From: Escherichia coli
GTDB lineage: Bacteria; Pseudomonadota; Gammaproteobacteria; Enterobacterales; Enterobacteriaceae
Direction: 5' to 3' (one strand)
NCBI RefSeq assembly: GCF_048403405.1
Contig: NZ_CP183129.1
DNA length: 64,000 nucleotides
Made by a program: the position numbers and the translations under genes. Positions 1 through 39,241 of the stretch are shown piece by piece. Below the pieces are notes generated by a model that made no database searches, was not told where the DNA came from, and was given only the letters and a program-made list of their open reading frames with translations. Each line of letters starts with the position of its first letter. Position 1 is the first letter of the stretch.

Positions 1-1
1 A

Positions 2-448
2 GCGGTGGGCTACGGTCATGACCTTGCCGCGCGCGAGAGCATGTTGCTGGCTTCATGCATGGCGGGAATGGCGTTTTCCAGTGCGGGGCTTGGGTTATGC
101 CACGCGATGGCGCATCAGCCGGGGGCGGCGCTGCATATTCCGCACGGTCTGGCGAACGCCATGTTGTTGCCAACGGTGATGGAATTTAACCGGATGGTTT
201 GTCGTGAACGCTTTAGTCAGATTGGTCGGGCGCTGCGAACTAAAAAATCCGACGATCGTGACGCTATTAACGCGGTAAGTGAGCTGATTGCGGAAGTCGG
301 GATTGGTAAACGACTGGGCGATATTGGTGCGACATCTGCGCATTACGGCGCATGGGCGCAGGCCGCGCTGGAAGATATTTGTCTGCGCAGCAACCCGCGT
401 ACCGCCAGCCTGGAGCAGATTGTCGGCCTGTACGCAGCGGCGCAATAA
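2..448 (+). CDS. eutG: EutG, iron-containing alcohol dehydrogenase (C-terminal part; 5' end outside window)
   Basis: ORF 5..448 translation matches Fe-ADH C-terminus; frame is open to the window start; followed by eutH. Confidence 0.85.
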   Translation, partial: AVGYGHDLAARESMLLASCMAGMAFSSAGLGLCHAMAHQPGAALHIPHGLANAMLLPTVMEFNRMVCRERFSQIGRALRTKKSDDRDAINAVSELIAEVGIGKRLGDIGATSAHYGAWAQAALEDICLRSNPRTASLEQIVGLYAAAQ

Positions 449-461
449 AAGTGTACGGACA

Positions 462-560
462 GTCCCCTCGCCCCTTTGGGGAGAGGGTTAGGGTGAGGGG
501 AACAGAGTCGCGCCGGTGCAAACAATTACCCTCACCCCGGCCCCTCGGCTTCCAGAGTGA
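462..560. repeat. GC-rich imperfect palindromic intergenic repeat (cccctcgcccc/ggggagaggg; gggtgaggg/ccctcaccc)
   Basis: Inverted repeats read directly in the eutG-eutH spacer; family assignment not possible without a search. Confidence 0.3.
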
Positions 561-617
561 GGGAAAAACCCACTTTCAGCATTGGCAATAAATAACAACT
601 AACAGGGAGTAAAGGCG

Positions 618-1844
618 ATGGGAATTAACGAAATCATCATGTACATCATGATGTTCTTTATGCTGATAGCTGCCGTAGACAGGATCCTGTCGCAGTTCGG
701 TGGTTCTGCTCGTTTCCTCGGTAAGTTCGGTAAAAGTATCGAAGGATCAGGCGGTCAGTTCGAAGAAGGCTTTATGGCAATGGGCGCTCTGGGCCTGGCG
801 ATGGTCGGTATGACCGCGCTGGCACCGGTACTGGCTCACGTACTCGGGCCGGTGATTATCCCGGTTTACGAAATGCTCGGCGCAAACCCGTCAATGTTCG
901 CCGGAACACTGCTGGCGTGCGATATGGGCGGGTTCTTCCTCGCCAAAGAGCTGGCGGGCGGCGACGTAGCAGCGTGGCTATACTCTGGGTTAATTCTCGG
1001 GTCGATGATGGGGCCAACGATTGTGTTTTCCATTCCGGTGGCGCTCGGCATTATCGAACCTTCTGACCGTCGTTATCTGGCGCTCGGCGTGCTGGCGGGC
1101 ATTGTGACCATTCCGATTGGCTGTATTGCTGGTGGTCTGGTTGCTATGTACTCCGGTGTGCAGATCAACGGTCAGCCGGTGGAATTCACCTTTGCGCTGA
1201 TCCTGATGAACATGATCCCGGTACTTATCGTTGCGGTGCTGGTGGCGCTGGGGCTGAAATTCATCCCGGAAAAAATGATCAACGGCTTCCAGATCTTCGC
1301 CAAATTCCTCGTTGCATTGATCACCCTCGGTCTTGCTGCCGCGGTAGTGAAATTCCTCCTTGGCTGGGAACTGATCCCCGGTCTGGATCCTATCTTTATG
1401 GCCCCTGGCGACAAACCCGGTGAAGTGATGCGCGCCATTGAAGTTATCGGTTCTATCTCCTGCGTTCTGTTAGGGGCGTACCCGATGGTGCTGCTGCTGA
1501 CCCGCTGGTTTGAAAAACCGCTGATGAGCGTCGGTAAAGTGCTGAATATGAACAACATCGCGGCAGCTGGCATGGTGGCAACGCTTGCTAACAACATCCC
1601 GATGTTCGGCATGATGAAGCAGATGGATACCCGCGGCAAAGTCATCAACTGCGCCTTCGCCGTTTCCGCTGCTTTCGCCCTGGGTGACCACTTAGGCTTC
1701 GCCGCTGCCAACATGAACGCCATGATTTTCCCGATGATTGTCGGCAAGTTGATCGGCGGCGTAACGGCGATTGGCGTGGCGATGATGCTGGTGCCAAAAG
1801 AAGACGCGACCGCGGCCAAAACCGAAGCGGAGGCACAATCGTGA
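618..1844 (+). CDS. eutH: EutH, ethanolamine permease
   Basis: 408-aa polytopic membrane ORF in conserved eut context. Confidence 0.9.
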   Translation: MGINEIIMYIMMFFMLIAAVDRILSQFGGSARFLGKFGKSIEGSGGQFEEGFMAMGALGLAMVGMTALAPVLAHVLGPVIIPVYEMLGANPSMFAGTLLACDMGGFFLAKELAGGDVAAWLYSGLILGSMMGPTIVFSIPVALGIIEPSDRRYLALGVLAGIVTIPIGCIAGGLVAMYSGVQINGQPVEFTFALILMNMIPVLIVAVLVALGLKFIPEKMINGFQIFAKFLVALITLGLAAAVVKFLLGWELIPGLDPIFMAPGDKPGEVMRAIEVIGSISCVLLGAYPMVLLLTRWFEKPLMSVGKVLNMNNIAAAGMVATLANNIPMFGMMKQMDTRGKVINCAFAVSAAFALGDHLGFAAANMNAMIFPMIVGKLIGGVTAIGVAMMLVPKEDATAAKTEAEAQS

Positions 1845-3244
1845 ACACTCGCCAGCTACTGAGCGTCGGTATCGATATCGGCACCACCACCACCCAGGTG
1901 ATTTTCTCCCACCTGGAGCTGGTTAACCGTGCGGCGGTGTCGCAGGTGCCGCGCTACGAATTCATCAAACGCGAAATTAGCTGGCAAAGCCCGGTGTTCT
2001 TTACCCCTGTCGATAAACAGGGTGGTTTAAAAGAAGCGGAACTGAAAACCTTAATCCTGGAGCAATATCAGGCTGCGGGCATTGCGCCGGAAAGTGTTGA
2101 TTCTGGTGCCATCATCATCACCGGTGAAAGCGCGAAAACCCGCAACGCTCGCCCGGCGGTGATGACGCTCTCCCAGTCTCTGGGCGATTTTGTCGTCGCC
2201 AGCGCCGGGCCGCATCTCGAATCCGTGATCGCCGGTCACGGTGCCGGGGCGCAAACCCTTTCTGAACAACGGCTGTGTCGGGTACTGAATATCGATATCG
2301 GCGGTGGCACTGCGAACTACGCCCTGTTCGATGCCGGAAAAATCAGCGGCACCGCCTGCCTCAACGTCGGCGGTCGCCTGCTGGAAACCGACAGCCAGGG
2401 GCGCGTGGTTTACGCTCATAAACCGGGGCAGATGATTGTGGATGAGTGCTTCGGCGCAGGCACCGACGCCCGTTCGCTGACCGGCGCGCAGCTGGTGCAG
2501 GTTACCCGGCGGATGGCAGAGCTGATTGTCGAAGTGATTGACGGAACGCTTTCGCCGCTCGCGCAGGCATTAATGCAAACCGGTTTGCTGCCCGCAGGTG
2601 TTACGCCCGAAATCATTACGCTTTCTGGCGGCGTGGGCGAATGTTATCGCCACCAGCCCGCCGACCCGTTCTGTTTTGCCGATATCGGCCCGCTTCTGGC
2701 AACGGCGCTGCATGACCATCCGCGCCTGCGTGAGATGAACGTGCAGTTTCCGGCGCAAACCGTACGCGCCACGGTGATTGGCGCGGGTGCACATACCCTT
2801 TCGCTCTCTGGCAGCACAATCTGGCTGGAGGGCGTACAACTGCCGCTGCGCAATTTGCCGGTGGCGATCCCAATTGATGAAACGGATCTGGTGAGTGCCT
2901 GGCAACAGGCGCTGATTCAGCTGGATCTTGATCCCAATTCTGACGCGTACGTGCTGGCGCTTCCCGCCTCGCTGCCTGTGCGTTACGCCGCGGTACTGAC
3001 GGTCATCAACGCGCTGGTCGATTTCGTCGCGCGTTTTCCGAATCCGCATCCCCTGCTGGTGGTGGCCGGGCAGGACTTTGGTAAAGCTCTGGGCATGTTG
3101 TTGCGCCCACAGCTACAACAACTCCCGTTGGCAGTCATTGACGAAGTGATTGTCCGCGCGGGGGACTATATCGACATTGGTACGCCTCTTTTTGGCGGAT
3201 CGGTTGTGCCGGTGACGGTGAAATCACTCGCATTTCCTTCCTGA
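1841..3244 (+). CDS. eutA: EutA, ethanolamine ammonia-lyase reactivase
   Basis: 467-aa ORF overlapping the eutH stop by 4 bp. Confidence 0.9.
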   Translation: MNTRQLLSVGIDIGTTTTQVIFSHLELVNRAAVSQVPRYEFIKREISWQSPVFFTPVDKQGGLKEAELKTLILEQYQAAGIAPESVDSGAIIITGESAKTRNARPAVMTLSQSLGDFVVASAGPHLESVIAGHGAGAQTLSEQRLCRVLNIDIGGGTANYALFDAGKISGTACLNVGGRLLETDSQGRVVYAHKPGQMIVDECFGAGTDARSLTGAQLVQVTRRMAELIVEVIDGTLSPLAQALMQTGLLPAGVTPEIITLSGGVGECYRHQPADPFCFADIGPLLATALHDHPRLREMNVQFPAQTVRATVIGAGAHTLSLSGSTIWLEGVQLPLRNLPVAIPIDETDLVSAWQQALIQLDLDPNSDAYVLALPASLPVRYAAVLTVINALVDFVARFPNPHPLLVVAGQDFGKALGMLLRPQLQQLPLAVIDEVIVRAGDYIDIGTPLFGGSVVPVTVKSLAFPS

Positions 3245-3255
3245 GGGAACGACTT

Positions 3256-4617
3256 ATGAAACTAAAGACCACATTGTTCGGCAATGTATATCAGTTTAAG
3301 GATGTAAAAGAGGTGCTGGCTAAAGCCAACGAACTGCGTTCGGGGGATGTGCTGGCGGGCGTTGCAGCGGCAAGCTCACAAGAGCGCGTGGCGGCAAAGC
3401 AGGTGTTGTCGGAAATGACCGTAGCGGACATCCGCAATAATCCGGTGATTGCCTATGAAGATGACTGCGTGACGCGGCTGATTCAGGACGACGTTAACGA
3501 AACGGCCTACAACCAGATTAAAAACTGGAGCATCAGCGAACTGCGTGAGTATGTCCTGAGCGATGAAACCAGCGTGGACGACATTGCCTTTACCCGCAAA
3601 GGGCTGACCTCGGAAGTGGTTGCGGCGGTAGCGAAGATTTGCTCCAACGCGGACCTGATCTACGGCGCGAAGAAAATGCCGGTAATCAAAAAGGCCAATA
3701 CCACCATCGGTATTCCGGGCACCTTCAGCGCCCGTTTGCAGCCAAATGACACCCGTGACGACGTGCAAAGTATCGCTGCGCAAATCTACGAAGGGCTTTC
3801 CTTCGGGGTGGGCGATGCGGTGATCGGCGTCAACCCGGTGACGGACGACGTGGAAAACTTAAGCCGCGTGCTGGACACCATCTACGGCGTGATCGACAAA
3901 TTCAACATTCCGACCCAGGGCTGCGTGCTGGCGCACGTCACCACCCAGATTGAAGCGATCCGTCGTGGCGCACCGGGCGGGCTGATTTTCCAGAGTATCT
4001 GCGGCAGCGAAAAAGGGCTGAAAGAGTTTGGCGTGGAGCTGGCGATGCTCGATGAAGCACGCGCAGTGGGCGCGGAGTTCAACCGTATCGCCGGGGAAAA
4101 CTGCCTCTACTTCGAAACCGGACAAGGTTCGGCGCTGTCCGCTGGCGCTAACTTCGGCGCTGACCAGGTGACGATGGAAGCGCGTAACTATGGGCTGGCG
4201 CGTCATTACGATCCGTTTATCGTCAACACCGTGGTCGGTTTTATTGGGCCGGAGTATCTCTACAACGACCGCCAGATTATCCGCGCGGGCTTAGAAGATC
4301 ACTTTATGGGCAAGCTGAGCGGCATCTCTATGGGCTGTGACTGCTGCTACACCAACCACGCTGACGCTGACCAGAACCTCAACGAAAACCTGATGATCCT
4401 GCTCGCCACCGCAGGCTGTAACTACATCATGGGGATGCCGCTGGGTGATGACATCATGCTCAACTACCAGACTACGGCCTTCCACGACACCGCCACTGTG
4501 CGTCAGTTACTCAACCTGCGCCCGTCACCGGAGTTTGAACGCTGGCTGGAAAGCATGGGCATTATGGCAAACGGTCGCCTGACCAAACGGGCGGGCGATC
4601 CGTCACTGTTCTTCTGA
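3256..4617 (+). CDS. eutB: EutB, ethanolamine ammonia-lyase large subunit
   Basis: 453-aa ORF starting 11 bp after the eutA stop. Confidence 0.92.
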   Translation: MKLKTTLFGNVYQFKDVKEVLAKANELRSGDVLAGVAAASSQERVAAKQVLSEMTVADIRNNPVIAYEDDCVTRLIQDDVNETAYNQIKNWSISELREYVLSDETSVDDIAFTRKGLTSEVVAAVAKICSNADLIYGAKKMPVIKKANTTIGIPGTFSARLQPNDTRDDVQSIAAQIYEGLSFGVGDAVIGVNPVTDDVENLSRVLDTIYGVIDKFNIPTQGCVLAHVTTQIEAIRRGAPGGLIFQSICGSEKGLKEFGVELAMLDEARAVGAEFNRIAGENCLYFETGQGSALSAGANFGADQVTMEARNYGLARHYDPFIVNTVVGFIGPEYLYNDRQIIRAGLEDHFMGKLSGISMGCDCCYTNHADADQNLNENLMILLATAGCNYIMGMPLGDDIMLNYQTTAFHDTATVRQLLNLRPSPEFERWLESMGIMANGRLTKRAGDPSLFF

Positions 4618-4637
4618 TGACGCGGAGATAACACATC

Positions 4638-5525
4638 ATGGATCAAAAACAGATTGAAGAAATTGTACGCAGCGTGATGGCGTCAATGGGACAAGCGGCC
4701 CCCGCGCCGTCAGAAGCAAAGTGCGCCACCACCACCTGTGCGGCACCGGTGACCTCGGAAAGCTGCGCGCTGGATTTAGGCTCTGCGGAAGCAAAAGCGT
4801 GGATTGGCGTTGAAAACCCGCATCGCGCAGACGTATTAACAGAACTGCGTCGCAGCACCGTGGCCCGCGTTTGTACCGGTCGTGCCGGTCCGCGTCCGCG
4901 TACCCAGGCGTTGCTGCGTTTCCTGGCCGATCACTCTCGTTCGAAAGATACCGTACTGAAAGAAGTGCCGGAAGAGTGGGTGAAAGCGCAGGGCTTGCTG
5001 GAAGTCCGCTCTGAAATTAGCGACAAAAATCTCTACCTGACTCGTCCGGATATGGGCCGCCGCCTGTGTGCAGAAGCTGTTGAAGCGCTGAAAGCGCAGT
5101 GTGTTGCCAATCCGGACGTGCAGGTCGTTATTTCTGATGGCCTGTCAACTGATGCGATCACCGTGAACTACGAAGAGATCCTGCCACCGCTGATGGCGGG
5201 CCTGAAACAGGCCGGGCTGAAAGTCGGTACGCCATTCTTTGTTCGTTATGGTCGCGTGAAGATTGAAGATCAGATCGGTGAGATCCTCGGCGCGAAAGTA
5301 GTGATCCTACTGGTGGGGGAACGCCCGGGATTAGGGCAGTCAGAAAGCCTCTCCTGCTACGCCGTTTACTCGCCGCGTATGGCGACCACCGTTGAGGCCG
5401 ATCGCACCTGCATCTCTAACATTCACCAGGGCGGCACGCCGCCGGTTGAAGCCGCAGCCGTCATTGTGGATTTGGCGAAACGTATGCTGGAGCAGAAAGC
5501 ATCCGGCATCAACATGACCCGATAA
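4638..5525 (+). CDS. eutC: EutC, ethanolamine ammonia-lyase small subunit
   Basis: 295-aa ORF in operon context. Confidence 0.92.
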
Positions 5526-5534
5526 GGAGGCATC

Positions 5535-6194
5535 ATGCCAGCTTTAGATTTGATTCGACCGTCGGTCACCGCCATGCGGGTGATTGCCTCTGTTAACGCC
5601 GAATTTGCGCGTGAACTGAAATTGCCGCCGCATATTCGTAGCCTCGGGCTGATTTCTGCTGATTCCGATGACGTCACCTACATTGCGGCTGACGAAGCGA
5701 CCAAGCAGGCGATGGTCGAAGTGGTGTATGGCCGCTCGCTGTATGCGGGAGCTGCACACGGACCGTCACCGACTGCCGGTGAAGTGCTGATTATGCTCGG
5801 TGGGCCAAACCCGGCGGAAGTGCGTGCTGGTCTGGATGCGATGGTTGCGCATATTGAAAATGGCGCGGCTTTCCAGTGGGCTAATGATGCGCAAGATACG
5901 GCATTCCTGGCACATGTAGTTTCGCGTACCGGTTCTTATCTCTCATCAACCGCCGGGATCACGCTTGGCGATCCGATGGCGTATCTGGTGGCACCGCCGC
6001 TGGAAGCGACCTATGGCATTGATGCAGCCCTGAAATCTGCCGACGTACAGCTGGTGACCTATGTCCCGCCACCGTCTGAAACCAACTACTCGGCAGCATT
6101 TTTAACCGGTAGCCAGGCAGCGTGTAAAGCAGCCTGTAACGCCTTTACCGATGCAGTGCTGGAAATCGCGCGTAATCCAATCCAGCGTGCGTAA
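5535..6194 (+). CDS. eutL: EutL, microcompartment shell protein
   Basis: 219-aa ORF in operon context. Confidence 0.9.
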
Positions 6195-6200
6195 CGGAGG

Positions 6201-6707
6201 TTGCCGATGATCAATGCACTGGGATTGCTGGAAGTGGACGGCATGGTCGCCGCGCTAGATGCTGCGGATGCCATGCTCAAAGCAGCTAACGTTCGTCTGC
6301 TCAGTCACGAAGTGCTTGACCCTGGTCGCCTAACGCTGGTGGTGGAAGGCGATCTGGCGGCGTGTCGTGCGGCGCTGGACGCAGGTTGTGCTGCCGCGAT
6401 GCGTACCGGGCGTGTCATCAGCCGCAAGGAGATCGGTCGGCCAGACGATGACACCCAGTGGCTGGTTACTGGCTTTAACCGCCAGCCTAAGCAACCCGTA
6501 AAGGAACCCGACGCGCCAGTTATCGTCGCGGAATCTGCTGACGAGTTGTTGGCGCTGTTAACATCAGTACGTCAGGGAATGACGGCAGGAGAAGTGGCTG
6601 CCCACTTTGGCTGGCCGCTGGAAAAAGCCAGAAATGCGCTCGAACAGCTCTTTTCTGCCGGGACGTTACGTAAACGCAGTAGTCGTTATCGTCTCAAGCC
6701 CCATTAA
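6201..6707 (+). CDS. eutK: EutK, microcompartment shell protein with C-terminal extension
   Basis: 168-aa ORF, N-terminal BMC-like sequence MINALGLLEVDGMVAALDAADAMLKAANV. Confidence 0.88.
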   Translation: MPMINALGLLEVDGMVAALDAADAMLKAANVRLLSHEVLDPGRLTLVVEGDLAACRAALDAGCAAAMRTGRVISRKEIGRPDDDTQWLVTGFNRQPKQPVKEPDAPVIVAESADELLALLTSVRQGMTAGEVAAHFGWPLEKARNALEQLFSAGTLRKRSSRYRLKPH

Positions 6708-6752
6708 CCTGTCGGAGGTGCCGGGTGTCCTACAACACCCGGCATTAACATC

Positions 6753-7805
6753 ATGAAAAAGACCCGTACAGCCAATTTGCACCATCTTTATCATGAACCC
6801 TTACCCGAAAACCTGAAGCTCACGCCGAAGGTCGAAGTGGATAATGTTCATCAACGACAGACAACGGATGTCTATGAACATGCTTTGACAATTACCGCCT
6901 GGCAGCAGATTTACGATCAGCTGCATCCGGGCAAGTTTCATGGTGAATTTACGGAAATTCTACTCGATGATATTCAGGTTTTTCGTGAATACACCGGTCT
7001 GGCGCTGCGTCAGTCGTGCCTGGTCTGGCCGAATTCGTTCTGGTTTGGCATTCCGGCGACGCGCGGTGAGCAGGGATTTATCGGTTCGCAATGTCTGGGA
7101 AGCGCAGAAATAGCGACGCGCCCTGGTGGAACCGAGTTTGAATTAAGTACGCCGGATGATTACACGATCCTTGGCGTAGTGCTTTCTGAAGATGTCATCA
7201 CCCGTCAGGCTAACTTTTTGCATAATCCGGATCGGGTATTACATATGCTGCGTAGCCAGTCGGCGCTGGAAGTGAAAGAGCAGCATAAAGCCGCGCTGTG
7301 GGGCTTTGTCCAACAGGCGCTGGCGACATTTTGCGAGAACCCGGAAAATCTTCATCAGCCTGCTGTGCGTAAAGTGCTGGGGGATAATTTGCTAATGGCG
7401 ATGGGGGCGATGCTGGAAGAAGCGCAGCCAATGGTGACGGCGGAAAGCATCAGTCATCAGAGTTACCGTCGGTTGCTTTCCCGCGCCCGTGAATATGTGC
7501 TGGAAAACATGTCTGAGCCGGTGACTGTGCTGGACTTGTGTAATCAACTGCATGTCAGCCGCCGCACGCTACAAAACGCGTTTCACGCTATTTTAGGCAT
7601 TGGCCCAAATGCGTGGCTGAAACGCATTCGCCTGAACGCCGTACGCCGCGAACTGATAAGCCCTTGGTCGCAAAGCACAACGGTAAAAGACGCCGCCATG
7701 CAGTGGGGATTCTGGCATCTGGGGCAATTTGCCACGGATTACCAGCAGCTGTTTGCCGAGAAGCCGTCGTTGACGCTGCATCAGCGGATGCGGGAATGGG
7801 GGTGA
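6753..7805 (+). CDS. eutR: EutR, AraC-family activator of the eut operon
   Basis: 350-aa ORF with C-terminal AraC-type HTH. Confidence 0.9.
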
Positions 7806-7810
7806 GGGAG

Positions 7811-8713
<903 letters not shown>

Positions 8714-9583
8714 TTACCGCTTTCTCGAGTGTGCTTTCTGGTTGTCAAACCAGTGAAAATAACTGATCACGCCTTCGGCAATCGCTGTGGCGATTTTCTG
8801 GCGAAATGCCGCCGTGCCTAACAGCCGCTCTTCTTCCGGATTGGTGATAAACGAGGTTTCCACCAGCACCGAAGGAACCGACGGCGATTTCAACACCACA
8901 AACGCGGCTTGTTCGGTGTTGCGGCTGTGCAGTTTATGCACCGGCTTAATCTTCTTCAGAATATGCGAGCCGAGCGTCAGGCTGTTTTTAATAGTATCGG
9001 TTTGCACCAGATCAAACAGCACTTGCTGCAATAGGTGATCCTTGTCAGTCGCCTTTTTACCGGCAACTTCATCGGCGCGGTTTTCGCGTTCAGACAGGTA
9101 TTTCGCCATTGCGCTACTTGCACCGCGGTTAGAGAGGGCAAATACCGAAGCACCGGCAGCTTTCGGGTTGGTAAAGCCGTCGGCATGAATTGACATAAAC
9201 AGATCTGCGCCATGTTTATGGGCGATTTCAACGCGATCGTACAGTGGGATAAACGTATCGCCAGAACGCGTTAAACGCGCATCAATGCCATGATTACGCA
9301 AAATGGAACGGACGTTTTTAGCAATCGCCAGCACCACATGTTTTTCTTTCGAACCGTTGCGCCCGATCGCTCCGGTATCAATCCCGCCGTGGCCTGGATC
9401 GAGAACAACGACACGTTTGCCGCCAGATTTTTTGGCTTTCGGCTTGCTGTGTCCGTTGCTGGTTTTTAAAGGTTCGTCTTTGGCGATGGCTTGCGACATT
9501 CCTGACAACGTCAGCGCTGCAAGTCCGGCTTTCAGCACCTGGCGGCGCGAAGTGAGTGTTTTTAGTGGTTTAAAAGTGCTCAT
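8714..9583 (-). CDS. amiA: AmiA, N-acetylmuramoyl-L-alanine amidase
   Basis: 289-aa ORF with signal peptide and amidase_3 core. Confidence 0.9.
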   Translation of the reverse strand: MSTFKPLKTLTSRRQVLKAGLAALTLSGMSQAIAKDEPLKTSNGHSKPKAKKSGGKRVVVLDPGHGGIDTGAIGRNGSKEKHVVLAIAKNVRSILRNHGIDARLTRSGDTFIPLYDRVEIAHKHGADLFMSIHADGFTNPKAAGASVFALSNRGASSAMAKYLSERENRADEVAGKKATDKDHLLQQVLFDLVQTDTIKNSLTLGSHILKKIKPVHKLHSRNTEQAAFVVLKSPSVPSVLVETSFITNPEEERLLGTAAFRQKIATAIAEGVISYFHWFDNQKAHSRKR

Positions 9584-9796
9584 ACGGCCTGAGTTGTAAT
9601 AATAAAGTTCCAGATGTTATATCGTATCGCGTAATCCGTTACGACCGTTTGCTGTTGAGAATTGTTTTACTTTTCATTTCAATAGTTGACAACTCCCCAT
9701 TATGCCACTTTTTCAACCGATTTTCGTCAGATATTGGCTAATTCGACCGTTCACGCCATAATCAGCCTTTTAACCCGCAAAAAGGTAACGAATACC

Positions 9797-10222
9797 ATGG
9801 AGATACGCGTATTTCGCCAGGAAGATTTCGAAGAGGTCATCACCCTTTGGGAGCGTTGCGACTTGCTGCGTCCGTGGAACGATCCGGAAATGGACATCGA
9901 GCGTAAGATGAACCATGACGTCAGTTTGTTTCTGGTCGCTGAGGTGAACGGTGAAGTGGTCGGAACGGTGATGGGCGGTTATGACGGGCATCGCGGGTCT
10001 GCTTATTATCTTGGCGTGCATCCAGAGTTTCGTGGGCGTGGGATTGCTAATGCGTTGCTTAATCGGTTGGAGAAAAAGCTGATTGCTCGCGGCTGCCCGA
10101 AAATTCAGATCAACGTGCCGGAAGATAACGACATGGTGCTCGGAATGTATGAACGCCTGGGATATGAACACGCCGACGTGCTGAGTCTGGGTAAGCGTTT
10201 GATTGAAGATGAAGAGTACTGA
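9797..10222 (+). CDS. ypeA: YpeA, GNAT-family acetyltransferase
   Basis: ORF 9686..10222; start placed at internal Met ([14 protein letters not shown]) giving 141 aa. Confidence 0.85.
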
Positions 10223-10658
10223 GTTTCATCCTGTCCATTATGATGCACACGGTCGCCTGCGTTTACCCTTGCTCTTCTGGTTTGTGCTATTGCTTCAGGC
10301 GCGAACCTGGGTGCTGTTTGTCATTGCCGGTGCGTCGCGCGAGCAGGGTACTGCGCTGCTAAATCTGTTTTATCCCGATCACGATAATTTCTGGCTGGGG
10401 TTGATTCCCGGCATTCCGGCGGTGCTGGCGTTTTTGCTGAGTGGTCGGCGGGCTTCATTTCCCCGTATCTGGCATGTGCTCTATTTTCTGTTGCTGTTGG
10501 CGCAGGTGGTTTTACTTTGCTGGCAACCGTGGCTGTGGCTGAACGGTGAATCCGTTAGCGGTATCGGGCTGGCGCTGGTAGTGGCGGATATTGTGGCGTT
10601 AATCTGGCTGCTGACCAATCGACGTTTACGCGCTTGTTTTAATGAAGAAAAAGAATAA
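10209..10658 (+). CDS. yfeZ: YfeZ, inner membrane protein
   Basis: Hydrophobic ORF 10203..10658; start uncertain by 2 codons. Confidence 0.8.
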
Positions 10659-10718
10659 CGGCACTTTTTGGTGAATTTGCACTCCAAGCAACGTTATTGA
10701 ATAACCAAAGGAAGTGAC

Positions 10719-11294
10719 ATGAAATCGCTGCGTTTAATGTTATGCGCTATGCCGTTGATGCTGACCGGCTGTTCCACGATGTCGTCAGTTAACTGGTCTG
10801 CCGCTAACCCGTGGAACTGGTTTGGGTCGTCCACCAAAGTGAGCGAGCAGGGCGTTGGTGAATTAACGGCGTCCACACCACTGCAAGAACAAGCCATTGC
10901 CGATGCGCTTGATGGCGATTATCGCCTGCGCAGCGGAATGAAAACCGCGAACGGCAACGTGGTGCGCTTTTTTGAAGTGATGAAAGGCGACAACGTGGCG
11001 ATGGTGATTAACGGCGATCAGGGTACGATCAGCCGCATTGATGTGCTGGATAGCGATATTCCTGCTGACACCGGTGTTAAAATCGGTACACCGTTTAGCG
11101 ACCTTTACAGCAAAGCATTTGGCAATTGCCAAAAAGCTGATGGTGATGATAATCGTGCCGTCGAATGTAAAGCCGAAGGCAGTCAACATATTAGCTACCA
11201 GTTCAGCGGGGAATGGAGTGGTCCTGAAGGGTTAATGCCTTCAGACGATACCCTGAAAAACTGGAAAGTCAGTAAAATTATCTGGCGGCGTTAA
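10719..11294 (+). CDS. yfeY: YfeY, lipoprotein
   Basis: 191-aa ORF with lipobox LTGC. Confidence 0.85.
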   Translation: MKSLRLMLCAMPLMLTGCSTMSSVNWSAANPWNWFGSSTKVSEQGVGELTASTPLQEQAIADALDGDYRLRSGMKTANGNVVRFFEVMKGDNVAMVINGDQGTISRIDVLDSDIPADTGVKIGTPFSDLYSKAFGNCQKADGDDNRAVECKAEGSQHISYQFSGEWSGPEGLMPSDDTLKNWKVSKIIWRR

Positions 11295-11305
11295 TTTGCG
11301 TCTGA

Positions 11306-12289
<984 letters not shown>

Positions 12290-12310
12290 GCGTTTCTGAT
12301 TCATTGATTA

Positions 12311-12346
12311 AAGGCCAGCCAGTAACACAACTGACTGGCCTTTTTA
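12311..12346 (+). terminator. Rho-independent terminator after yfeX
   Basis: Hairpin aaaggccagccagt / actgactggccttt followed by a T-run. Confidence 0.6.
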
Positions 12347-12374
12347 TTACTGCTTTAACGCCGCATACACTTGA

Positions 12375-12464
12375 TCAACTACTTTCTGTCAGAACAGGGT
12401 ATTTTGCGGCGCTGACGCTACAGCTGACAGCCAGCAGAGAAAGATAGAGCATTGTCCGTTTCAT
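12375..12464 (-). pseudogene. yfeW: yfeW (PBP4B) 5' stub: 29 codons encoding a signal peptide (MKRTMLYLSLLAVSCSVSAAKYPVLTESS) then stop
   Basis: Short ORF starting 5 bp after the murP stop, in the position K-12 yfeW occupies; no room for a ~434-aa gene before yfeX. Confidence 0.45.
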
Positions 12465-12468
12465 GATA

Positions 12469-13893
<1,425 letters not shown>

Positions 13894-13896
13894 GGG

Positions 13897-14793
13897 TTAT
13901 TCCTTGTCTAAAACCTGACGAATAAAGCCGCCGTGTTGATCCAGGCGTTTTTTAGCTTCTGCGGCATCGAGATTTTTCAGCACCATCACAATGGCCGTTT
14001 TACAGTTGCGCTCGCAGGCAACCAATGCCGCTTCCGCTTGCTCTGCGCTACATCCGGTAGCGTTTTTGACGATATTGACCTGGCGCACATGCAGTTTTTC
14101 GTTGGTGGCGACCACATCGACCATCAGGTTGCCGAACACTTTGCCGGATTTAATCATCAGCCCGGTGGAGAGCATATTGAGCACCAGTTTCTGCGCTGTA
14201 CCTGCTTTCATCCGCGAAGAACCGGTAACCACTTCGGCACCTACAATCGGTGTAATGGCAAACTCTGCGGTGGTTGAAACGGCGCTCCCCGGATTACAGG
14301 AAATTCCCACTGTGCGGCAACCGAGCTGGCGGGCGTATTCCAGTCCGGCAATCACATACGGCGTACGACCGCTGGCGGCAATACCGACCACCACATCCTG
14401 TGCCGTTAAATTAATATTTTTCAGATCGTTAACGCCGCCTTCCCGGCTATCTTCCGCGCCTTCCACCGCGTGCTGAATGGCATATTCGCCGCCAGCAATC
14501 AAACCAACTACCAGGCCCGGTTTCACGCCGTAGGTCGGCGGACATTCACTGGCATCAAGAATACCCAGACGACCAGAGGTCCCCGCACCGATGTAAATCA
14601 GACGGCCGCCGCCGCTCACCTGGGCGTGAATAACATCGATCGCCGCTGCAATATCCGGCAGTACGCGCTCAACGGCGAGTGGTACGGTTTTATCTTCATC
14701 GTTGATAATCCGGCACATTTCCAGCGTCGAAACGCGGTCAATTTCAGCCGAGGCGGCATTCGAGCCTTCGGTAATCATCTTTTCAAGTTGCAT
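13897..14793 (-). CDS. murQ: MurQ, N-acetylmuramic acid 6-phosphate etherase
   Basis: 298-aa SIS-domain ORF. Confidence 0.9.
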
Positions 14794-14964
14794 CAGTGGT
14801 GACCTTAGTATTCACAATCAAATAATTGCATATTGATGGAATCATATATCTCAATTTGCTAGTTTTAAAGGAATCATTGAGTCTGAAATCACAGAGTGTG
14901 AAGAGCGTCAAAGGGCAAAATCCGTGTGCTATGCTGCGCGCAGGATGTGGTGAGGGAGTGGAAG

Positions 14965-15822
14965 ATGTTGTACCTGACGAAAATACGCAATGCGGAAAGT
15001 GAATTTACCGAGAACGAGCAAAAAATTGCTGACTTTCTGCGGGCCAACGTGAGTGAGCTGAAATCCGTCTCTTCGCGCAAGATGGCGAAACAGCTCGGCA
15101 TCAGCCAGTCGAGTATTGTGAAGTTTGCCCAGAAGCTCGGTGCGCAAGGATTTACTGAATTGCGTATGGCGTTAATTGGCGAATACAGTGCTAGCCGGGA
15201 GAAAACGAATGCCACGGCGCTGCACCTGCACAGTTCGATTACCAGTGATGATTCGCTGGAAGTGATTGCCCGCAAATTGAATCGCGAAAAAGAGCTGGCG
15301 CTGGAGCAAACCTGTGCGTTGTTCGACTACGCGCGGTTGCAAAAAATCATTGAGGTCATCAGTAAAGCACCGTTTATCCAGATAACGGGCCTGGGTGGGT
15401 CGGCGCTGGTGGGGCGCGATCTTTCATTCAAACTGATGAAAATTGGTTATCGTGTGGCCTGTGAAGCTGACACGCATGTACAAGCCACCGTTTCCCAGGC
15501 GCTGAAAAAAGGCGATGTACAAATCGCTATCTCTTACAGCGGCAGTAAAAAAGAGATTGTCTTGTGCGCCGAGGCAGCGCGAAAGCAGGGGGCAACGGTG
15601 ATTGCCATTACCTCATTAACCGATTCCCCGCTGCGGCGGCTGGCGCATTACACCCTCGATACCGTTTCTGGCGAAACCGAATGGCGCAGCTCGTCGATGT
15701 CCACCCGCACGGCGCAAAATTCTGTTACCGATTTACTGTTTGTTGGCCTTGTGCAACTCAATGATGTGGAGTCATTGAAAATGATTGAGCGCAGCAGTGA
15801 GCTAACGCAACGCCTGAAATGA
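14965..15822 (+). CDS. murR: MurR, RpiR-family repressor of murQP
   Basis: ORF 14926..15822; start placed at [14 protein letters not shown] (285 aa); divergent from murQ. Confidence 0.88.
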
Positions 15823-34013: not shown

Positions 34014-34089
34014 ATTGGTGGGTCGTGCAGGATTCGAACCTGCGACCAATTGATTAAAAGTCAACTGCTCTACCAACTGAGCTAACGAC
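34014..34089 (-). tRNA. lysV: tRNA-Lys (UUU)
   Basis: 76 nt, reverse complement GGGTCGTTAGCTCAG...ACTTTTAATCA...CCACCA. Confidence 0.95.
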
Positions 34090-34093
34090 CCGA

Positions 34094-34169
34094 AGTGGTG
34101 GGTGATGACGGGATCGAACCGCCGACCCCCTCCTTGTAAGGGAGGTGCTCTCCCAGCTGAGCTAATCAC
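34094..34169 (-). tRNA. valY: tRNA-Val (UAC)
   Basis: 76 nt, anticodon loop CCTTACAAGG, 3' CCA. Confidence 0.95.
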
Positions 34170-34215
34170 CCACTTCGGTACTTCACATTTTTACAAGAAA
34201 TTTAGCTGGCGAGAA

Positions 34216-34291
34216 AGTGGTGGGTGATGACGGGATCGAACCGCCGACCCCCTCCTTGTAAGGGAGGTGCTCTCCCAGCTGAGCTAATCAC
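34216..34291 (-). tRNA. valX: tRNA-Val (UAC)
   Basis: Identical 76-nt copy. Confidence 0.95.
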
Positions 34292-34335
34292 CCACTTCTC
34301 AATTTCTTGCTACACGGCGGAGACTACATAAAGTA

Positions 34336-34411
34336 GTTGGTGGGTGATGACGGGATCGAACCGCCGACCCCCTCCTTGTAAGGGAGGTGCTCTCCCAGCT
34401 GAGCTAATCAC
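34336..34411 (-). tRNA. valU: tRNA-Val (UAC)
   Basis: Identical 76-nt copy. Confidence 0.95.
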
Positions 34412-34671
34412 CCCCGCTGTGTGGAGTCGCATTATAGGGAGAGTTCAAAATGAGTCAACGCATTTTCTAAAGAAATTGTTCGTTCGTCGTAAATTTAAGC
34501 AAGATGATCGCAAAACAGACCGTGTTGCGCAATTTGTCAACGAAAACAATAATGCGTAAGGTTGCAACCCGAACTACATTGAGGAATCAGGCGGGAGTGA
34601 TAGAATATCGCCCACTCAATTTTTCCAGGATTTGCCGGTTGTCGGCATCTTTCTAAACGTAAGGCCATTTC

Positions 34672-36210: not shown

Positions 36211-36630
36211 TTGCTGTTGTTCAATGTATTGGCGGATGACGGATATTGGCGCACCTCCGCAGCTACTGGCAAAATAGCCAGGACTCCACAAAACGCCTTT
36301 GTAGTAATACCTGACGGCAATATCTGGTCGATCTCGTCGCAGTCACCTACCCGATACGCCTTTGAGGCTGTTTACCAGACTGGATATCGCCAGTTTGGGA
36401 GGATAGTTAATTAACAAATGGACGTGATCTGGTTCGCCATCCATTTCAACCAGTTCAGCTTCAAAATCAGCACATACCTTTGAAAAGTAAGTGCGTAGTT
36501 TTTCTGTCGCGTCATGGTCAAAAATCTGGCGTCGGTATCTGGTGACAAAGACCAGGTGAACATGCATCAGGAAAACACAATGCCTTCCACGCCGGATATC
36601 GGTTTCTTTTTTCACAGACCAAAGTATCAT
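36211..36630 (-). pseudogene. tnpA: tnpA (IS200/IS605 Y1 HuH transposase) interrupted by an in-frame TGA at 36343-36345
   Basis: N-terminal ORF 36343..36630 carries HuH (PDHVHLLI); the same frame continues after the stop through RLRRDRPDIAVRYYYKGVLWSPGYFASSCGGAPISVIRQYIEQQ (ORF 36088..36291). Confidence 0.7.
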
Positions 36631-36637
36631 TTGGCCT

Positions 36638-37846
36638 GTGAAACGACTACAGGCATTTAAATTCCAGTTAAGACCCGGTGGTCAACAGGAGCGTGAAATG
36701 AGGCGCTTCGCAGGCGCATGTCGTTTCGTTTTCAATCGTGCTCTGGCGCTTCAGAATGAGAATCATGAGGCCGGTAATAAATACATCCCTTACGGGAAAA
36801 TGGCTTCCTGGCTGGTTGAGTGGAAAAACGCCACTGAAACGCAATGGCTTAAAGATTCGCCCTCACAGCCATTGCAACAGTCACTGAAAGACCTTGAGCG
36901 GGCTTACAAAAACTTCTTCCGGAAGCGGGCTGCTTTTCCCCGATTCAAAAAGCGGGGACAGAATGATGCATTCCGCTACCCGCAGGGCGTTAAGCTCGAT
37001 CAGGAAAACAGCCGTATTTTTCTGCCGAAACTTGGCTGGATGCGCTACCGGAATAGCCGTCAGGTCACGGGTGTTGTGAAAAATGTCACTGTCTGCCAGT
37101 CCTGCGGTAAGTGGTACATCAGTATTCAGACAGAAAGTGAAGTATCAACTCCGGTTCACCCTTCAGCATCAATGGTCGGGCTGGATGCTGGCGTGGCTAA
37201 ACTCGCCACGCTGTCAGATGGCACAGTCTTTGAGCCTGTAAACAGTTTTCAGAAAAACCAGAAGAAGCTGGCGAGACTTCAGCGACAGTTAAGCCGCAAG
37301 GTCAAATTCAGCAACAACTGGCAGAAGCAGAAACGCAAAATACAGCGACTGCATTCCTGTATCGCAAATATCCGCAGGGACTACCTTCATAAAGTCACAA
37401 CGACCGTCAGCAAAAACCACGCAATGATAGTCATTGAGGATTTGAAGGTCAGTAACATGTCAAAGTCAGCAGCGGGTACGGTCAGCCAGCCGCGGCGCAA
37501 TGTCCGGGCAAAATCAGGTTTAAACCGTTCGATACTGGATCAGGGCAGGTATGAAATGCGCCGCCAGCTTGAGTACAAGCAGCTCTGGCGTGGCGGTCAG
37601 GTGCTTGCTGTTCCGCCAGCGTACACAAGCCAGCGTTGCGCGTGCTGTGGTCATACAGCGAAAGAAAATCGCCTGTCACAAAGTCAATTCAGATGCCAGG
37701 TATGTGGATATACAGCGAACGCCGATGTAAACGGCGCTCGTAACATTTTAGCGGCGGGGCACGCCGTTCTTGCCTGTGGAGAGATGGTGCAGTCAGGCCG
37801 CCCGTTGAAGCAGGAACCCACCGAAATGATTCAGGCGACAGCCTGA
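36638..37846 (+). CDS. tnpB: TnpB (IS605 OrfB-type RuvC-like nuclease), 402 aa, GTG start
   Basis: N-terminal KFQLRP...FNRAL; RuvC-I GLDAGV, RuvC-II VIEDLK, CxxC...CxxC zinc finger (CACCGH...CQVCGY), Ruv[13 protein letters not shown]. Confidence 0.85.
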
Positions 37847-38170: not shown

Positions 38171-38236
38171 AATGAGATGGTCACTCCCTCCTTCCCGGTA
38201 CTATGCTGAGGACAGGCTTTCATTCGGAGAACTATC

Positions 38237-39241
38237 ATGGAAAACATTGCGCTCATTGGTATCGATCTGGGTAAAAACTCTTTCCATATTCATTGCCAGG
38301 ATCGTCGCGGGAAGGCTGTTTACCGTAAAAAATTTACCCGGCCAAAGTTGATCGAATTTTTGGCGACATGCCCCGCTACAACCATCGCAATGGAAGCCTG
38401 TGGCGGTTCTCACTTTATGGCACGCAAGTTGGAAGAGTTGGGGCATTCCCCAAAGCTGATATCACCACAATTTGTCCGCCCGTTCGTTAAAAGCAATAAA
38501 AACGACTTTGTCGACGCCGAAGCTATTTGTGAAGCTGCATCGCGTCCGTCTATGCGTTTTGTGCAGCCCAGAACGGAATCTCAGCAGGCAATGCGGGCTC
38601 TGCATCGTGTCCGTGAATCCCTGGTTCAGGATAAGGTAAAAACAACCAATCAAATGCATGCTTTTCTGCTGGAATTTGGCATTAGCGTTCCCCGAGGAGC
38701 TGCCGTTATTAGCCGACTGAGTACCATTCTTGAGGATAATAGTTTGCCTCTTTACCTCAGCCAGTTATTGCTGAAATTACAACAGCATTATCACTATCTT
38801 GTTGAGCAGATTAAAGATTTGGAATCCCAGTTGAAACGAAAGTTGGACGAAGATGAGGTTGGACAGCGCTTGCTGAGCATTCCCTGCGTCGGAACACTGA
38901 CAGCGAGTACTATTTCAACTGAGATTGGCGACGGGAAGCAGTACGCCAGCAGCCGTGACTTTGCGGCGGCAACAGGGCTTGTACCTCGGCAGTACAGCAC
39001 GGGAGGTAGGACGACATTGCTGGGAATTAGTAAGCGAGGTAATAAAAAGATCCGAACTTTGTTGGTTCAATGTGCCAGGGTATTCATACAAAAACTGGAA
39101 CACCAGTCTGGCAAATTGGCCGATTGGGTCAGGGATTTACTGTGCCGGAAAAGCAACTTTGTCGTCACTTGTGCTCTGGCAAACAAGCTGGCCAGAATAG
39201 CCTGGGCCCTAACGGCACGACAGCAAACTTATGTAGCATAA
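38237..39241 (+). CDS. IS110-family DEDD transposase/recombinase, 334 aa
   Basis: N-terminal RuvC-like motifs (IGIDLGK, MEACG, DFVDAEA) and C-terminal domain with conserved Ser (VPRQYSTGG). Confidence 0.85.
   Translation: MENIALIGIDLGKNSFHIHCQDRRGKAVYRKKFTRPKLIEFLATCPATTIAMEACGGSHFMARKLEELGHSPKLISPQFVRPFVKSNKNDFVDAEAICEAASRPSMRFVQPRTESQQAMRALHRVRESLVQDKVKTTNQMHAFLLEFGISVPRGAAVISRLSTILEDNSLPLYLSQLLLKLQQHYHYLVEQIKDLESQLKRKLDEDEVGQRLLSIPCVGTLTASTISTEIGDGKQYASSRDFAAATGLVPRQYSTGGRTTLLGISKRGNKKIRTLLVQCARVFIQKLEHQSGKLADWVRDLLCRKSNFVVTCALANKLARIAWALTARQQTYVA

Follow-up and report, generated by a model that had tools for sequence, protein, structure and literature searches.

A contiguous eutA-eutB junction with an empty IntZ-type attachment site in the eut operon of a non-K-12 Escherichia coli

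In Escherichia coli K-12 MG1655 (NC_000913.3), the element annotated as 'cryptic prophage CPZ-55' occupies positions 2558691-2565480, 6,790 bp lying exactly between eutB (b2441) and eutA (b2451), and its genes, intZ and yffL to yffS (intZ-yffLMNOPQRS, b2442-b2450), run antisense to eut. An 8-bp duplication, TCAGGAAG, and a position right after the eutA stop codon have been described for CPZ-55 (PMC6379469). Transcription of the eut operon starts at a promoter ahead of eutS that is active with ethanolamine plus B12, and a weak second promoter serves eutR; in BW25113, a carrier of CPZ-55, eutS and eutR are induced and eutB is not, and the strain neither forms microcompartments nor grows on ethanolamine (PMC7617246). 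When CPZ-55 was scarlessly removed, ethanolamine became usable again as a nitrogen source (PMC11334477). A novel prophage at the same eutA-eutB site has already been published for the UPEC strain U71 (PMC6652756). Within K-12, CPZ-55 is described in the literature as missing from XL1-Blue and RR1/HB101, and W3110 has been reported as eut+.

The DNA considered here (the window) is a stretch of 64,000 nucleotides from an E. coli genome (contig NZ_CP183129.1). It opens inside eutG and continues through the distal eut genes, which were assigned from open reading frames and NCBIfam equivalog models:

1..448, + strand: eutG (ethanol dehydrogenase), 3' part only, truncated where the window begins; NCBIfam EutG equivalog, matched over 249-395 of its 395 profile positions; maps onto eutG of strain TUM1226
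618..1844, + strand: eutH (ethanolamine permease/facilitator); NCBIfam NF011665, 873 bits, full length
1841..3244, + strand: eutA (ethanolamine ammonia-lyase reactivase), 467 aa; NCBIfam NF007991, 1070.7 bits (cutoff 799), positions 1-467 of 467
3256..4617, + strand: eutB (ethanolamine ammonia-lyase large subunit), 453 aa; NCBIfam NF011649, 664.7 bits (cutoff 554)
4638..5525, + strand: eutC (ethanolamine ammonia-lyase small subunit); NCBIfam NF003971, 339.6 bits
5535..6194, + strand: eutL (microcompartment shell protein); NCBIfam NF011934, 401 bits
6207..6707, + strand: eutK (microcompartment shell protein); NCBIfam NF012010 against residues 3-168 of the ORF starting at 6201
6753..7805, + strand: eutR (AraC-type operon activator); NCBIfam NF007522, 790 bits, full length

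All eight genes lie on a single strand in the order eutG-H-A-B-C-L-K-R, with short or overlapping junctions; the GTG start of eutA, for example, overlaps the eutH stop by 4 nt. The extent of eutK, 501 nt, follows RefSeq in genomes identical to the window. Downstream, the ORFs at 7811-8713 (-) and 8714-9583 (-) are hemF and amiA by correspondence with the identical genomes, in which maeB, outside the window, is also found. The eutG-eutH intergenic region (449-617) contains a G/C-rich palindromic repeat, CCCCTCGCCCCTTTGGGGAGAGGGTTAGGGTGAGGGG, which we take to be BoxC-like; MG1655 has two REP-type units there, and the difference marks this spacer as a variable repeat slot.

The junction between eutA and eutB is made up of two short features:

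3237..3244, + strand: unoccupied attachment-site core CTTCCTGA, at which CPZ-55 and related IntZ-type islands cross over and which they duplicate; one copy in the window, two in K-12, where they flank CPZ-55
3245..3255, + strand: eutA-eutB spacer GGGAACGACTT, read from the sequence and the same in 35 of 35 other-species loci

The eutA stop codon TGA occupies 3242-3244 and the eutB start codon ATG 3256-3258, leaving 11 nt (3245-3255) between them, and the junction reads ...GCATTTCCTTCCTGA/GGGAACGACTT/ATGAAACTAAAG (eutA end, spacer and eutB start). The first-pass annotation had placed the eutA stop at 3244 and the eutB start 11 bp further on at 3256, and both these coordinates and the gene calls proved right by sequence, ORFs and NCBIfam; the contiguity of the two genes in the window is confirmed. 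A Shine-Dalgarno-like GAGGGAA for eutB (3243-3249) overlaps the eutA stop codon and stands 6 nt from the ATG. No terminator-like site was found between eutA and eutB on the eut strand.

Alignment of both K-12 junctions showed that MG1655 has the sequence arrangement of the window, interrupted by an insert directly behind the eutA TGA; the 11-nt spacer remains with eutB. Together with the MG1655 annotation, this bears out, for that strain, the statement in the first-pass annotation that CPZ-55 separates the two genes in K-12. The octamer CTTCCTGA, which includes the eutA stop codon, is found at both ends of the K-12 insert and constitutes the direct repeat flanking CPZ-55. In the window it occurs at 3237-3244 as one copy followed at once by the spacer and eutB, with no bracketed foreign DNA. 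Searches of the whole 64 kb with CPZ-55 DNA (blastn) and with IntZ (tblastn) gave no match, and a tyrosine integrase gene (intZ) adjoining eutB and reading away from it is absent from the window. The single octamer and the lack of CPZ-55 and IntZ matches mean that the window holds an empty attachment site.

The same site receives other elements elsewhere in the species. An intZ-like integrase is matched at 80-90% DNA identity in about 200 further E. coli genomes, and both of the two that were inspected carry an island at the eutA-eutB site. In BMH-17-0027 a 13-kb island lies between eutA and eutB (1666-14657 of the extracted locus); the CTTCCTGA core recurs there and the island ends are homologous. 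The genes of this island match a tape-measure-like protein, a small terminase, an HNH endonuclease and an anti-repressor. In 14EC033 an island adjoins eutB (6437-15487 of the extracted locus) together with an IS1, and eutS to eutA have been lost. The integrases of these two islands are about 92% identical to IntZ. No confirmed match came from IMG/VR when it was searched for IntZ relatives that would point to use of the attachment site in other genera. Strain 102651 has an eutA cut short by IS903B and by a complex insert rich in IS elements.

That the contiguity might be an artefact, the product of a collapsed assembly, can be set aside almost entirely: positions 1-25000 of the window are matched at 100% identity by TUM1226 and several further isolates, complete genomes that were assembled independently, and the same eutA-eutB junction is present in thousands of genomes. 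The absence of CPZ-55 had also been read in the first-pass annotation as placing the DNA outside the K-12 lineage, and here the conclusion held on grounds other than those offered. K-12 is polymorphic for CPZ-55, which is present in MG1655, BW25113, MC1061 and J53 and absent from W3110, C600 and DH5alpha; the statement that K-12 has the prophage is accordingly correct for MG1655 and many derivatives and wrong for the latter three. In the W3110 reference (NC_007779.1), eutA (2564137-2565540) and eutB (2562764-2564125) are adjacent, with the same 11-nt gap and no prophage, and in C600 and DH5alpha a probe of joined MG1655 flanks matches at 100% in a single piece without a scar. Adjacency of the two genes in K-12 itself, which the first-pass annotation had named as the observation that would count against its argument, is thus seen in all three strains, and because they too lack CPZ-55, its absence alone cannot exclude K-12. 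A K-12 derivative without CPZ-55, such as W3110, C600 or DH5alpha, would have the junction structure of the window, and such strains plainly exist; even so, it is extremely improbable that the window comes from one. Across eutA-eutB the window differs from K-12 by 83 SNPs in 2,777 nt (2.99%), and it is this divergence of about 3% that identifies it as non-K-12. In the eut region its identity to MG1655 is 96.7-97.6%, below the near-identity of >99.9% that a K-12 strain would be expected to show, and positions 586-8998 align gap-free to W3110 at 96.8% identity over 8.4 kb. The repeat in the eutG-eutH spacer is unlike that of K-12, and the isolates with which the window is 100% identical over 25 kb (TUM1226, GN02461, MS 69-1) are non-K-12. 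Absence of CPZ-55 is therefore unsuitable as a marker of the K-12 lineage. As a separate observation, K-12 AG100 (NZ_LN832404.1), which is free of CPZ-55, carries about 90 additional bp at the junction, along with another 'EutA' CDS of 75 nt, the result of a small duplication or else an artefact of assembly.

The first-pass annotation had further taken the contiguous arrangement to be ancestral, and comparison within and beyond the species upholds this. The junction, queried with a 1.1-kb probe, was matched in one place in 4,964 of 5,426 complete E. coli genomes (about 91%). This count is a maximum, since pieces lying up to ~1 kb apart are merged by the search and a small insertion would escape it. 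Full-length CPZ-55 at 99% identity or more was found in 212 genomes, mostly laboratory derivatives of K-12 among the matches listed. Outside E. coli, 35 species representatives were retrieved from a genome collection by a degenerate pattern for the EutB N-terminus; they cover Citrobacter, Klebsiella, Escherichia, Salmonella arizonae, Yokenella, Pluralibacter, Intestinirhabdus and Pseudocitrobacter, the pattern having left out S. enterica, E. albertii, E. fergusonii and the Morganellaceae. Each of the 35 has 11 nt between the end of eutA and the start of eutB, and these 11 nt are identical to GGGAACGACTT. These comparisons support the contiguous state as both common and ancestral. The contiguity could instead be secondary, the site having once been occupied and then restored by precise integrase-mediated excision. 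Such an event would be hard to see: in K-12 strains free of CPZ-55 the joined MG1655 flanks are matched at 100% and without a scar, so that past occupation would leave no visible trace, and the islands at this site in both inspected genomes with an intZ-like integrase lend the idea some substance. There is, however, no positive evidence for past occupation, and with the empty site in the majority in E. coli and universal in the outgroups, parsimony favours a site that was never occupied; we give earlier occupation only a slim chance.

Nucleotide conservation around the junction defines one further feature:

3157..3353, + strand: near-invariant zone, synonymous sites included, in 35 species of 8 enterobacterial genera; invariant core 3200-3260

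From about 3157 to 3347 the majority frequency at third codon positions is 0.91-1.00, against a baseline of about 0.72. Because the species were chosen by an unchanged EutB N-terminus, conservation across the whole family may be lower than these figures suggest. The core at 3200-3260 is the longest invariant run (61 nt) in the 7-kb eutH-eutR alignment, and the longest SNP-free run relative to K-12 (3015-3362) contains the conserved zone. Synonymous sites are likewise more conserved at the eutH start, at the eutH/eutA overlap and at the eutB/eutC junction, and the pattern looks like a general constraint on gene boundaries that is strongest at eutA-eutB. The CPZ-55 attachment core stands at the centre of this most conserved stretch of eutH-eutR. 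Integrases generally target invariant sequence, a rule which an attachment site in a conserved stretch fits, and the extreme conservation could be why IntZ-family integrases adopted this sequence; the location is only a mildly new point.

Whether the junction has a function of its own at the nucleotide level was approached from several directions. An Rfam search of 2900-3600 at E<=10 returned only a meaningless snoRNA match of 13 bits, and a sigma-70 promoter scan of the same interval gave 0 sites, leaving an internal promoter unsupported; a literature search for an internal eut promoter likewise found no papers. RNA folding of 3155-3355 showed no unusual stability (sense z = +0.45, antisense z = -1.33). 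A hairpin is predicted in which TTTCCTT (3233-3239) pairs with GAGGGAA and covers both the eutB Shine-Dalgarno and the eutA stop codon. Examined as a structure (3226-3262), this hairpin is weak, at -6.2 kcal/mol and z = -1.3, with 19 of 200 shuffles folding as well. RNAalifold, run over 13 genera, returned a covariation term of +0.18 and a single compensatory pair, in sequences too invariant for a structure test. Small ORFs spanning the junction, such as an antisense frame at 3135-3284 (49 aa, TTG start), were discarded as purely mechanical and indistinguishable in invariant sequence. We suggest, tentatively and as the less probable reading, that the junction is the centre of a cis-acting element of about 190 nt (core 3200-3260) kept at synonymous sites in at least eight enterobacterial genera. 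A candidate role could be that of a translation-coupling or initiation signal for eutB, for example through the predicted TTTCCTT/GAGGGAA hairpin. The conserved junction hints at nucleotide-level constraint on eutB expression.

Elsewhere in the window, several mobile elements and tRNA genes were noted. A 1,326-bp copy of IS4321 (IS110 family) at 38171-39496 interrupts yfeD; TUM1226, which is otherwise near-identical, lacks this copy. The empty site, TTT/TTCCGTTTTCCAG, presumably resembles the terminal-repeat core of the Tn21 family, the usual IS4321 target. Between gltX and yfeD (36343-37846) is an IS609-like element, common to TUM1226, in which an intact gene for a TnpB RNA-guided endonuclease (402 aa) adjoins a truncated IS200-type tnpA. 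Two ordinary tRNA arrays are present, one of Lys(UUU) and three Val(UAC) at 34016-34413 (-), whose Val-array spacing differs slightly from that of TUM1226, and one of two Ala(GGC) at 40186-40376 (+); an Rfam gathering scan of the whole window detected six tRNAs only.

The first-pass annotation had predicted an uninterrupted operon of 17 eut genes. This is what TUM1226 has, in the order eutS-P-Q-T-D(pta)-M-N-E-J-G-H-A-B-C-L-K-R between maeB and hemF, and ST2747 has the same arrangement. The window itself begins inside eutG, and the integrity of the upstream half, eutS to most of eutG, is judged from the identical genomes since it lies outside the window; the eut operon of the source strain is very probably intact. 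The 11-nt spacer, which carries the eutB ribosome-binding site, would leave eutB and the genes downstream on the eutA mRNA, as gene anatomy and published work suggest. The last 8 nt of eutA, CTTCCTGA, serve as the core of a chromosomal attachment site for elements with a tyrosine integrase (IntZ). In MG1655 that site is filled by the 6.8-kb CPZ-55, with its genes antisense to eut, and published experiments show that neither induction of eutB nor use of ethanolamine survives this. In the window, where the site is empty, eutB-C-L-K, and possibly eutR, would be co-transcribed with eutA, and the source strain is predicted to be Eut+ because its attachment site is empty. We therefore hold with high confidence that window positions 1-7805 represent the distal part of an intact, ancestral-type, non-K-12 eut operon with an empty IntZ site and a predicted Eut+ phenotype; nothing in the evidence contradicts this explanation. 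Unlike MG1655 and BW25113, the strain would thus be expected to use ethanolamine, a nutrient that derives from gut and urine and has been linked to competitive fitness. The practical value of the intact junction is small.

In summary, the feature is an ordinary one, and both the empty site and the CPZ-55 insertion have already been described in the literature. The eut operon of MG1655 and BW25113 has the same genes, the same order and the same 11-nt eutB leader as the window, with eutA of 467 and eutB of 453 codons in both; MG1655 differs by the 6,790 bp after the eutA TGA and the duplicated CTTCCTGA, the window having the octamer once and nothing inserted, and by about 3% of nucleotides. The IntZ-type islands of U71, BMH-17-0027 and 14EC033 share the attachment core at the eutA stop and vary in cargo, whereas the window is without an island. 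Further counterparts are the intact 17-gene EUT1-type loci of Salmonella enterica and, within E. coli, of Nissle 1917 and W3110, which have the G-H-A-B-C-L-K-R order with eutA and eutB adjacent, as in the window (for Nissle and Salmonella, the same architecture is documented in PMC7617246), and from these the window, which shows the distal 7.4 genes, differs by allelic sequence differences only.
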